A stretch of DNA of 64,000 nt from Escherichia coli (GTDB lineage Bacteria; Pseudomonadota; Gammaproteobacteria; Enterobacterales; Enterobacteriaceae): assembly GCF_001677475.2 (NCBI RefSeq), contig NZ_CP015229.1, one strand, 5' to 3'. The first letter of the stretch is position 1. Every line of letters starts with the position of its first letter. A program made the translations under genes and the position numbers. Shown piece by piece: positions 3,405 to 32,387 of the stretch. The notes under the pieces are model-generated. The model worked only from the letters and a program-made list of their open reading frames with translations, ran no database searches and was not told the DNA's origin.

Positions 3405-3490
3405 GGGATTTGCCGGATGCGGCGTACACGCCTTATCCGGCCTACGATAGACACTTTGTAGGCCGGATACGCGCAGCGCATCCGGCAACC
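3405..3490. repeat. REP (repetitive extragenic palindrome) elements
   Basis: gccggatgcggcgtacacgccttatccggcctac and inverted copy gtaggccggatacgcgcagcgcatccggca. Confidence 0.8.
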
Positions 3491-3492
3491 GG

Positions 3493-5643
3493 TTAGTGGT
3501 GCGAAGAGATCTTCACGCCGCCTTCCGGGATTGGAACGTACGGCGTTTCTTTGTCAGTACGTTTGTCGCTGTTACGCACCTTCAGCCAGGTTTTGAAACC
3601 GTAGAAGATGATGCTGTACACCACAATCAGGAACAGAATACTCAGGCCTGCGTTGGTGTAGTTGTTCACAACGATGTGGTTCATGTTGGCAATCTGCTGC
3701 GCCGTCAGGTCAGTACCGTTAGCAATCTTCTCTTTGTACTGGCTTGCCATGTAGAAGAAGCCTTCCATCTGCGGGTTGGTGCTGAACAGTTTCAGACCCA
3801 GCGCCCAGGTGGTGCAGATAAGCAGCCATACCGCCGGAACAACAGTTACCCAGATGTATTGGGTGCGCTTCATCTTAATCAGCACAACGGTGCCCAGAAC
3901 CAGCGCTACGGCTGCCAGCATCTGGTTGGAGATACCGAACAGCGGCCACAGGCTCTTAACGCCGCCCAGCGGATCGACCACGCCCTGATACAGCAGGTAG
4001 CCCCACAGACCCACACAGCCCGCTGTACCGATGATACCGGCAACCAGAGAGTCGGTTTTTTTCAGGAACGGGATGAAGTTACCCAGCAGGTCTTGCAGCA
4101 TAAAGCGGCCAGAACGGGTACCGGCATCCAGCGCGGTCAGGATGAACAGGGCTTCGAACAGGATACCGAAGTGATACCAGAAGCCCATGTCAGCCATCGG
4201 CAGCACTTTGTGGAATACATGAGCGATACCTACCGCCAGCGTCGGCGCACCACCTGCACGGTTCAGGACAGAAGGCTCACCAATGTCTTTCGCGGTTTGC
4301 AGGATCTGCTCTGGCGAAATCACGAAGCCCCAGGAGCTGACAGTCGCCGCCGCGTGTGCGGTAACGTCTTTCAGCTGCGCCATGATGATTGGCGCGTTCT
4401 CGCCACCCATTTCATGCAGGTTAGGCATGGTGATGCCGAGGCCAGCAGGCGGGGTGTTCATCGCGAAGTAAAGACCCGGTTCGATGATGGACGCAGCAAC
4501 CAGCGCCATAATCGCCACGAAGGACTCCATCAGCATTGCGCCGTAGCCGATGAAACGCGCATCGGTTTCGTTAGCCAGCAGTTTCGGCGTCGTACCGGAA
4601 GAGATCAGCGCGTGGAAGCCAGATACCGCACCACAGGCGATGGTGATGAACAGGAACGGGAACAGAGCGCCTTTCCACAGCGGGCCAGTACCATCAATGT
4701 ACTGAGTCATCGCAGGCATTTTCAGTTCCGGGTTCAGCACCACGATACCCAGCGCCAGGCCGACGATAACGCCGATTTTCAGGAAGGTTGCCAGATAGTC
4801 GCGCGGTGCGAGGATCAGCCACACCGGCAGCAGTGCGGAAACAAACGCATAGCCAATCAGCGCGAAGGTAATGGTGGTGTCTTTAAAGGTCAGTGCCGGA
4901 CCCCAGTACGGATCGTGAGCAATCACGCCACCGAAGTAGATAGAGGCAACCAGCAGCACGATACCAATGACAGAGACTTCACCTACACGCCCCGGACGAA
5001 TAAAGCGCATGTAGATACCCATAAACAGCGCAATCGGTACGGTTGAGCAAACGGTGAAGACACCCCACGGACTTTCGGCCAGGGCTTTAACCACAATCAG
5101 CGCCAGGACGGCAAGGATGATGATCATGATTAAGAAACAGCCAAACAGCGCGATAGTCCCCGGTACTGGTCCCATCTCTTCTTTGATCATCTCACCGAGA
5201 GATGCGCCGTTACGGCGAGAGGAGATAAACAGCACCATAAAGTCCTGTACCGCACCGGCCAGCACTACCCCCGCCAGCAGCCACAGCGTGCCAGGCAGGT
5301 AGCCCATCTGCGCGGCGAGCACCGGACCAACCAGCGGACCGGCACCGGCGATAGCGGCGAAGTGGTGACCAAACAACACGTAACGGTTGGTCGGAACGTA
5401 GTTCAGACCGTCGTTGTTAATAACCGCAGGCGTCGCGCGCGTGGGGTCGAGTTTCATCACCTTCTGGGCGATGTACAGACTGTAGTAGCGATACGCCACC
5501 AGATACACCGACACAGAGGCGACCACGATCCACAGGGCGCTGACGTGCTCCCCCCGACGTAATGCAACTACCGCGAGGCAGAATGCACCGATGATTCCGA
5601 GAATCACCCAGGGTATGTGCTTGAATAGTTTTTTCGTATCCAT
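3493..5643 (-). CDS. btsT: Pyruvate/proton symporter BtsT (CstA family; YjiY)
   Basis: ORF track 3493..5658, 721 aa polytopic protein; start likely at [16 protein letters not shown]. Confidence 0.9.
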
Positions 5644-6035
5644 AGTAAAACCTGGCATTTTACTCGTCGTCTTTTGGCTTACAGGTGCGACAGCTGCATT
5701 TGTTCACCTCTGTCACTTACTGTTGTAAGCTCCCGGGGATTCACTCACTTGCTGCCTTCCTGCAAACCAAAATCCATTGAGTAATTTGTTAATCATAGGC
5801 CGAAGCCGTTCTAGGTTTGCGTTGCGTTTGAGGAGGTAAATTGACCGCTATCCTGCAGTGATGTTGCCAGAGTTACGCGCGCGTAAAGTAAGGTAAATAA
5901 CTGAGTGGTTATTTTAGGGACGTAAGCGGTCAGGAATGGCGGTGAGCGGTTGGGCAAGAATTATTCATCGGGTGGATATGTGATTGAGATCACAATAAAA
6001 ATGCCCCTTCGACGAATACGTGAAGGGGCTGGAGC

Positions 6036-6548
6036 TTAAATCGCAGCTTCCATTTCCAGCATCACCGGATGGAAACGGCGTTTAAAGTAGATAAGTCCGT
6101 GACCTTCTGCACTGAGGATGATGTTTTTAATCTCCACCAGATACACCAGATGTGTGCCAATTGCCTGCACATCGCGGATCTCACCTTCAAGACTGGCCAG
6201 CGAACCTTTCAGCACCGGCTGCGCCAGCGGACCTTTTTGCCAGCATGAGAGGCTAAAACGCTCTTCCATCGCCATGCCTGTCATGCCCGCGAAGTGGCGT
6301 GCCATCAGTTCCTGCTCATGGTTGAGGACGTTGACGCACAACTTGCCGTTGCCCTGAAAAACCGGGTTCATCGCACTGTTGGCGTTAATGCACACCATCA
6401 GCGACGGTGGTGTATCCGTGACCGAGCAGACAGCCGTTGCCGTAATCCCGCATTGTCCGGCGTCGCCCTCGGTGGTGATAATATTTACCGCTGCCGACAG
6501 GCTGGCCATCGCGTCACGAAAGCGCAGGCGTTGTTCATCTAATTGCAT
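6036..6548 (-). CDS. hpaC: 4-hydroxyphenylacetate 3-monooxygenase reductase component HpaC (flavin reductase)
   Basis: ORF track 6036..6566; MQLDEQRLRFRDAMASLSAAVNIITT... matches HpaC as recalled; immediately downstream of hpaB. Confidence 0.85.
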   Translation of the reverse strand: MQLDEQRLRFRDAMASLSAAVNIITTEGDAGQCGITATAVCSVTDTPPSLMVCINANSAMNPVFQGNGKLCVNVLNHEQELMARHFAGMTGMAMEERFSLSCWQKGPLAQPVLKGSLASLEGEIRDVQAIGTHLVYLVEIKNIILSAEGHGLIYFKRRFHPVMLEMEAAI

Positions 6549-6565
6549 CTTAACCTCCTGCTGCA

Positions 6566-31851: not shown

Positions 31852-31885
31852 ACAGTCATCTTACTTTTTTTGATATCGCCTCGTT

Positions 31886-31972
31886 TGGTGCGAGGGGGGG
31901 GACTTGAACCCCCACGTCCGTAAGAACACTAACACCTGAAGCTAGCGCGTCTACCAATTCCGCCACCTTCGC
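31886..31972 (-). tRNA. leuP: tRNA-Leu (anticodon CAG), one-base variant in variable arm
   Basis: Same 87-nt tRNA with aagaacac instead of aaggacac on plus strand. Confidence 0.95.
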
Positions 31973-32000
31973 CCAGTGCGAGCAATATCAACGTGGTTTT

Positions 32001-32087
32001 TGGTGCGAGGGGGGGGACTTGAACCCCCACGTCCGTAAGGACACTAACACCTGAAGCTAGCGCGTCTACCAATTCCGCCACCTTCGC
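32001..32087 (-). tRNA. leuQ: tRNA-Leu (anticodon CAG)
   Basis: Third tandem copy identical to the first. Confidence 0.95.
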
Positions 32088-32192
32088 ATACCGTCAATTC
32101 TTAAAAAGAATTGCTACCACGGAGGCGCATTCTAGTGGTTTTCAGCTTTTCGTCAATAGTTAATTATCGCCGGAGGTGTAATTGCTGGAAAA

Positions 32193-32387
32193 ATGTCCAT
32201 CAGGAAACTAGCGTGCAGGTTTGGTAGGTCGGATAAGGCGTTCACGCCGCATCCGACACGGTATTTGGGTGCAGATGCCAGATGCGACGCTGGCGCGTCT
32301 TATCTGGCCTACGAAGGGCTAACGTGCAGGTTTTGTAGGTTGTATAAGGCGAGCACGCCGCATCCGGCAAGGCTTGCGGCGAGATAA
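32193..32387. repeat. REP element cluster between leuQ and rsmC
   Basis: Multiple ggataaggcg...gccgcatccg palindromic units. Confidence 0.8.

Follow-up and report, generated by a model that had tools for sequence, protein, structure and literature searches.

REP palindromic units organised as BIMEs in and around the hpa cluster of an Escherichia coli chromosome

Repetitive extragenic palindromic (REP) elements, or palindromic units (PUs), and the bacterial interspersed mosaic elements (BIMEs) that they make up have been known since the 1980s. Members of the family carry a GTAG tail and a stem mismatch, fall into y, z1 and z2 types, are organised as BIMEs and vary in copy number among strains, and REPs can be cleaved and recombined by REP-associated tyrosine transposases (RAYTs) (PMC3333891). 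One BIME, REP325 at yjdM-yjdN, is the source of the Rfam model naRNA4 (RF02564), for which a role in nucleoid condensation was proposed (PMC4550694) and has been contested (bioRxiv 10.64898/2026.03.23.713779). Here we describe palindromes in and around the hpa cluster in 64,000 nucleotides of Escherichia coli DNA (contig NZ_CP015229.1; hereafter, the window). The REP elements found are of an already known kind. With a probability of about 0.92, we regard the elements as ordinary REPs organised as BIMEs, and those at the hpa sites as old and turned over in each lineage rather than as markers of the cluster's arrival.

Identity and arrangement of the palindromic units

The elements form three clusters, between btsT and yjiX, between hpaI and hpaX, and downstream of rsmC, together with two isolated sites.

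3411 to 3445, minus strand: btsT cluster, 35-nt Z-type PU, GTAGGCCGGATAAGGCGTGTACGCCGCATCCGGCA (written GTAG-first), 34/35 to the consensus (E 3.6e-13)
3458 to 3487, plus strand: btsT cluster, 30-nt short-loop PU, GTAGGCCGGATACGCGCAGCGCATCCGGCA (written GTAG-first)
10701 to 10733, minus strand: hpaI cluster, third unit, degenerate, GTAG lost (GCGG), GCGGACCGGATAAGGCGTTTGTGCGCATCCGCC, with a 15-nt exact core match
10751 to 10785, minus strand: hpaI cluster, middle unit, 35 nt, 35/35 to the supplied consensus (E 1.5e-15), with a partial naRNA4 match at 10745-10782
10800 to 10829, plus strand: hpaI cluster, 30-nt short-loop unit carrying the tail pattern and directly abutting the hpaI stop codon
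12451 to 12484, minus strand: tail-less REP unit, GGCCGGATGATAAGGCGCAGCCGCCATCCGGCA, between the hpaF stop codon (12501-12503) and the hpaH start (12432)
22779 to 22822, no strand assigned: decayed palindrome, read as REP-derived, of two inverted REP tail halves, GTAGGCCGGAGAAGGTG ... CACCTTATGCGACCTAC
32224 to 32258, plus strand: rsmC cluster, 35-nt Z2-type unit, GTAGGTCGGATAAGGCGTTCACGCCGCATCCGACA, within the 73-bit naRNA4 match over 32227-32309; absent from K-12 and W
32276 to 32312, minus strand: rsmC cluster, 37-nt Y-type (Y-like) unit, 35/37 to the Y consensus (E 6e-12), part of the same naRNA4 match
32335 to 32369, plus strand: rsmC cluster, degenerate Z2-like unit found by consensus blast and hidden Markov model (HMM)

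A first-pass annotation of the window had placed canonical REPs at 3405-3490, 10700-10829 and 32193-32387, and a variant at 22779-22826. Consensus scan, blast and Rfam all find canonical REPs in the first three stretches, the ends of which were drawn slightly generously: 3405-3410, 32193-32223 and 32370-32387 are not PU sequence. The scan used CGNCTTATCNGGCCTAC, a tail pattern taken from the classical REP consensus, with at most three mismatches and 100 dinucleotide shuffles as the null. It returned 12 matches against 0.97 expected, a count reached by 0/100 shuffles, and 10 of the 12 lie in the four stretches just named, so the match to a REP consensus that the annotation had left to a formal scan was obtained. 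Searches with PU consensus sequences (blastn-short) gave E<1e-3 at the three clusters only, with a best match of 35/35. A scan with a head pattern whose internal spacing was wrong gave 37 matches against 19 expected, none of them in REPs.

The naRNA4 model derives from REP325 at yjdM-yjdN and is therefore independent of the window. Its match to the rsmC cluster exceeds the gathering score of 59.5, and sub-threshold matches occur at 3385-3442 (E 1.2e-4) and 10745-10782 (E 4e-4). Across the 64 kb it found nothing beyond the three clusters, and 22779-22822 and 12451-12484 are unmatched. An HMM trained on the window's own units detected no additional strong copies in the window. A prophage that fills the last 29 kb serves as an internal control, and consensus blast, HMM and Rfam scans found zero REPs in it.

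Direct reading of the sequence and folds of the three clusters reveal imperfect palindromes of 30 to 40 nt with a stem-loop. GTAG stands at the palindrome foot in seven of the eight units of these clusters; it is replaced by GCGG in 10701-10733 and, at the isolated hpaF-hpaH site, by TCCA in 12451-12484. The stem mismatch, GGAT-AA-GGCG opposite CGCC-GC-ATCC, can be read in 3411-3445, 10751-10785 and 32224-32258, and appears as an internal loop in the RNA folds. On the transcribed strand the clusters fold with z = -5.7 to -6.9, and neighbouring inverted units pair into long hairpins. Every site is extragenic, lying between annotated genes in potential 3' untranslated regions (UTRs), 0-18 nt past a stop codon, and consensus blast and Rfam yielded no significant REP match in coding sequence anywhere in the window. 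The elements are also dispersed at high copy number, except for 22779-22822, which has one place per genome: the REP part of the hpaI-hpaX query has a median of at least 26 places per E. coli genome, and the rsmC query a median of 9.

GC-rich, stable hairpins just past stop codons could also be gene-specific intrinsic terminators without kinship to any repeat family. However, these hairpins have no following T-run, share one consensus that includes the unpaired GTAG tail, recur dozens of times per genome and match a model from the unrelated REP325 locus at yjdM-yjdN. This explanation is already refuted for the three clusters, and we give it next to no credence.

The REP units are arranged as BIMEs, with orientations of -/+ (btsT), -/-/+ (hpaI) and +/-/+ (rsmC), linkers of 12-22 nt and strain-variable unit numbers; the decayed unit 10701-10733 interrupts strict alternation. 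A BIME-1 consists of a single Y-Z1 pair across a conserved L linker of ~30 nt, often with a site for integration host factor (IHF). Assignment to this class fails because no such linker is present: the tail-to-tail linkers are 12, 14 and 22 nt long and lack a WATCAA-type IHF core. The clusters are therefore BIME-2-like or atypical, and typing of units as Y, Z1 or Z2 is limited to the pair aligned with naRNA4. At all sites the variation among strains is of the kind known for BIMEs.

Several points weigh against this reading. The HMM is circular for the units on which it was trained, and is informative only on the absence of extra copies because its training units are those of the window. Three of the ten elements (10701-10733, 12451-12484 and 22779-22822) are degenerate; judged on this sequence by itself, they would not pass as REPs. 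There is no RAYT gene within the 64-kb window. Any regulatory effect at these particular sites is argued from literature on the family, in which REP effects are context-dependent and some REPs have no measurable effect (bioRxiv 10.64898/2026.03.23.713779).

History of the repeats at the hpa junctions

The hpaI stop codon is at 10830-10832 and the hpaX start at 10655, and three PUs lie between them, in agreement with the first-pass annotation. This BIME is found in 2020 E. coli genomes, nearly all colinear with the window. The comparison with strains W and B that the annotation had proposed revealed changes in unit number and state: in E. coli B REL606, fusion of units 2 and 3 has removed exactly one 51-bp unit, and W carries a less decayed copy at the position of 10701-10733. 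For the latter unit the HMM gives E 3e-7, although the unit was in the training set. The BIME is more decayed in E. coli MSB1_7A, and in E. coli SCPM-O-B-8794 the first unit is duplicated along with the final eight bases of hpaI. These two genomes, both labelled E. coli, have hpa clusters 92-94% identical to that of the window, which is well below the usual within-species level.

Forty-one hpaX loci in Enterobacterales were scanned, with one genome per species. The hpaI-hpaX spacer holds 3-8 PUs in E. coli, Pseudocitrobacter and Citrobacter and a single hairpin in K. oxytoca/grimontii, Salmonella and others; it is a REP-free 43-47 bp in K. michiganensis, two Enterobacter sp. and Raoultella terrigena. 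In Citrobacter sp. NCU1 it reaches 418 bp. Among 16 aligned enterobacterial lineages, which include at least six named genera, the first PU has the same orientation throughout; it begins immediately after the hpaI stop codon in 13 and 4-5 nt later in the other three. In the alignment of its hairpin, 95% of cells are paired, and in five lineages both partners of one pair have changed, turning A-U into G-C. This covariation supports a maintained hairpin, but falls short of proof because it is modest and the lineages are related.

The first-pass annotation took REPs inside the cluster to mean that it had resided long in E. coli, or else came from a close relative. Long residence is not warranted by the repeats, since a hairpin at the hpaI stop codon is common to the 16 lineages; with a REP hairpin at the same spot in related genera, the hpa REPs are no clock of residence in E. 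coli. From these alignments, the hpaI-hpaX repeat is a feature of the enterobacterial hpa cluster that has been turned over in place, and not an addition made in E. coli.

Alternatively, hpa might have entered E. coli repeat-free, as a foreign island, and host machinery might later have seeded REPs in it, such that REP content would reflect residence time. The E. coli copies do fit the E. coli-type consensus exactly (35/35), and host-specific re-seeding could explain why Klebsiella, Salmonella and Kluyvera have their own variants there, with GGGT/ACCC arms. Variation in the number of second and third units by lineage, the REP-free spacers of a few genera, and the lack of REPs in the recently acquired prophage point the same way. 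Against it stand the shared position and orientation of the first unit across genera, a second junction, hpaF-hpaH, that is also repeat-rich across genera, and indications that the cluster was already at this locus. We consider seeding after arrival to be quite improbable, and continue to favour old repeats turned over in each lineage.

The indications of an ancestral location come from gene order. As in the window, hpaC adjoins btsT in Citrobacter, Pseudocitrobacter and Enterobacter sp. 10-1, and the cluster is probably ancestral at the locus because of this adjacency. It is carried by 2020-2071 of 5426 complete E. coli genomes, and its loss from K-12 has been proposed (PMC7201708). The cluster thus looks ancestral and lost in K-12, and "island", the term used in the first-pass annotation, is doubtful and probably a misnomer. 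Window positions 5950-17271, which hold the hpa genes, are missing from K-12. The K-12 btsT-tsr spacer, compared with window 5645-6036 and 17215-17332, shares 161 bp (93% identity) on the btsT side and 61 bp on the tsr side. A clean deletion joint in K-12 was considered and rejected, because 133 AT-rich bp in the middle of that spacer match nothing in the window; the hpa-minus state is therefore no simple scar. The GC content of hpa, 54.4% versus ~50% in its flanks, is a modest excess that is not decisive either way.

The tail-less unit at the second junction, 12451-12484, was missed in the first pass. The HMM matches it over nearly its full length, though weakly (E 1.1), and its fold alone is not significant (z = -0.75). 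At the same site, E. coli W and SCPM-O-B-8794 have two canonical PUs. The hpaF-hpaH spacer is a repeat hotspot across genera; in Citrobacter sp. NCU1 its tandem PUs, ~20 REP units in alternating orientation, make up an array of 968 bp. Enterobacter sp. RIT418, Kluyvera and K. spallanzanii have a different repeat here, CCCTCTCCC…GGGAGAGGG…TTAGGGTGAGGG. Judging from these spacers, the junction seems to be a general landing or expansion site of intergenic repeats.

The hpaF gene itself (12501-12881, with spacer 12433-12500) is dimorphic. Between the window and E. coli W, hpaF is only 80% identical and the flanking genes are 96-98% identical; the W allele is 93% identical to that of Pseudocitrobacter. 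Among hpa-positive complete E. coli genomes, the window type with its short spacer is found in 1084, and the W type, which has two PUs, in 987. The divergent block is bounded on one side by the hpaD/hpaF junction and on the other by the hpaF-hpaH spacer with its REPs.

The cluster as a whole is a mosaic. From hpaE to hpaI (10830-14600, except hpaF) it is 90-98% identical to Pseudocitrobacter faecalis / vendiensis, whereas hpaX, hpaA, hpaB and hpaC are 80-88% identical to Pseudocitrobacter, and hpaX/hpaA 80-83% to P. vendiensis. This step in identity falls at the hpaI-hpaX BIME. The mosaic suggests a recent inter-genus exchange of part of the cluster, for which the contrast of 90-98% with 80-83% is direct evidence, and the annotation's other proposal, descent from a close relative, is compatible with the data. 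One could imagine that REP-bearing hpa junctions act as, or mark, preferred recombination joints at which pathway modules are swapped between genera and between E. coli lineages, although we think this unlikely; REP spacers may promote such joints or may merely coincide with gene boundaries. Among the papers covered by our literature search, none links hpa with REPs. The account of the E. coli W hpa cluster by Prieto et al. in 1996 (J Bacteriol 178:111) reportedly mentions REPs.

The btsT, rsmC and opgB sites and the surrounding DNA

The btsT cluster lies between the btsT stop codon and the yjiX start, and unit 3458-3487 ends 5 nt from the btsT stop codon (3493-3495). Unit 3411-3445 matches the tail pattern with 0 mismatches. 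The two units are tail-to-tail across a 12-nt linker, GATAGACACTTT, and fold together into one long hairpin (z = -6.4). This pair is present in 1177/5382 genomes (~22%) and absent from K-12 and W. Most genomes without it, K-12 and W included, have a spacer shorter by 81 bp, and this spacer is another allele, not a cleanly emptied version of the site. Since the two alleles are unrelated and only one contains the BIME, the difference reflects allele replacement and not simple REP insertion. Comparison of window 3363-3492 with K-12 shows the BIME on the window allele only, and a different GC-rich hairpin immediately precedes yjiX on each allele, GCCCGGA-AGG-TCCGGGC in the window and GCCCCGC-CGAA-GCGGGGC in K-12.

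In the rsmC cluster, 32224-32258 and 32276-32312 are head-to-head with an 18-nt linker, and 32276-32312 and 32335-32369 are tail-to-tail with a 22-nt linker. The last unit lies 18 nt past the rsmC stop codon (32388-32390) and differs by several substitutions from its copy in K-12 and AH65. Upstream of the cluster, 32203-32223 is a partial copy of an inter-PU linker. The window has three units versus two in K-12 and W; AH65 has 8 additional bp, and O157 genomes are ~100 bp shorter. Identity of this cluster with the published REP325 was rejected: REP325 sits at yjdM-yjdN, and the Rfam match reflects a paralogous unit.

The palindrome at 22779-22822 occupies the spacer between the convergent genes lgoD (end 22697) and opgB (stop 22836-22838). 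The annotation's description of this site as a variant is borne out, in that it contains only inverted REP tail halves, has marginal HMM scores (E 0.06 and 0.56) and has no Rfam match. Its tail halves each agree with the consensus at 14/15 positions and match the tail pattern with two and three mismatches. We read it as a decayed REP doublet, while leaving an appreciable minority of the weight to a different origin, namely a locus-specific bidirectional terminator or stabiliser hairpin serving lgoD and opgB and resembling REP tails by chance. The single place per genome, conserved in 5388/5426 E. coli, would suit such a local hairpin, as would good folding on both strands (z = -4.5 and -6.3), the missing REP head (GCATCCGGCA), the marginal HMM scores and the lack of a naRNA4 match. 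Chance resemblance, however, has to account for two 14/15 matches to the REP tail GTAGGNCGGATAAGG, inverted and within 45 nt. With three mismatches or fewer, chance would give the 17-nt tail pattern about one match in 64 kb, yet two of the 12 matches are here, and a spacer between convergent genes is a typical REP position.

The window aligns over its full length with E. coli chromosomes; chromosomal genes (hsdR…btsT-hpa-tsr…leuVPQ-rsmC) come first, and a lambdoid prophage takes up the rest. Positions 1-35197 align with E. coli AH65 and K-12 at ~98% identity. The gene order is hsdR, yjiA, yjiX, btsT, hpaCBAX, hpaIHFDEG, hpaR, tsr, lgoTRD, opgB … leuVPQ (three tRNA-Leu), rsmC, holD, rimI, yjjG. 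The K-12 RefSeq annotation has no REP features in the region. The prophage is inserted after yjjG, extends from ~35.2 kb to the window end (~29 kb; 35200-64000) and is 99.8% identical to Escherichia phage PhiR63_1 over 22 kb. It contains an integrase open reading frame (35428-36663), and its Rfam elements are a C4 antisense RNA (43085-43172), isrK (42984-43060) and two cspA-type thermoregulator leaders (51434-51873 and 54889-55304).

Possible effects and comparison with known systems

The identity, structural potential, position and polymorphism of the elements are demonstrated, and the effects considered here are drawn from the literature on the family. A dual role has been reported for REPs, which act as partial Rho-dependent terminators and as mRNA stabilisers (bioRxiv 10.64898/2026.03.23.713779). 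At the 3' ends of the minus-strand transcripts of btsT, hpaF, hpaI and rsmC, REP hairpins could block 3'-to-5' exonucleases and protect the upstream mRNA, and they might also be partial Rho-dependent terminators. Such effects would favour the upstream gene, that is, hpaGEDFHI over hpaX and btsT over yjiX. The distance from hairpin start to stop codon is 0 nt for hpaI, 5 nt for btsT, 13 nt for opgB, 16 nt for hpaF and 18 nt for rsmC. The hairpins of hpaI, btsT and opgB might also damp translation termination, because they are inside the ~15-nt range of the reported effect. A translational effect of stop-proximal REPs was reportedly described by Liang, Rudd and Deutscher in 2015. REP gain, loss and homogenisation have been attributed to RAYTs and to recombination between units (PMC3333891, PMC2817692).

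Where related genera have the same repeat family at the same junctions, REPs in an accessory cluster cannot be used to time its residence in the host. The BIME abutting hpaI is a plausible tuner of meta-operon expression versus that of hpaX/hpaA, which could be relevant to strains for 4-hydroxyphenylacetate catabolism and to HpaBC-based biocatalysis. Beyond correct annotation the significance is small, and strain-to-strain variability of REPs is already documented.

REPINs, the RAYT-mobilised REP doublets of Pseudomonas and E. coli, are characterised by a cognate RAYT gene in the genome and by cleavage at CT sites beside the units. They resemble the window elements in that inverted neighbours pair into one long hairpin, and the presence/absence polymorphism seen here fits a mobile or recombining element. 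The window differs in having no RAYT gene in 64 kb and no target-site signature that we could see, and the filled and empty alleles of the btsT cluster differ over the whole spacer, which is not the pattern of a clean insertion. In the case of REP325 / naRNA4, window 32227-32309 aligns end to end with the 77-nt Z2+Y unit. However, the locus is different (the rsmC 3' UTR), and there are three units instead of the 12 of the BIME at yjdM-yjdN; the Rfam name naRNA4 should not be taken as a function of the window units.

The closest system is the REP/BIME family of E. coli itself (Y, Z1 and Z2 units; BIME-2 and atypical BIMEs). Nothing essential differs, although three window units are decayed, having lost the tail or retained tail halves only. 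Both have the same imperfect palindromes of 30-37 nt, which carry GTAG as a 5' tail and an AA/GC mismatch in the stem, and in both, alternating units with short linkers are strictly extragenic, located in 3' UTRs, present in high copy and variable in number among strains.

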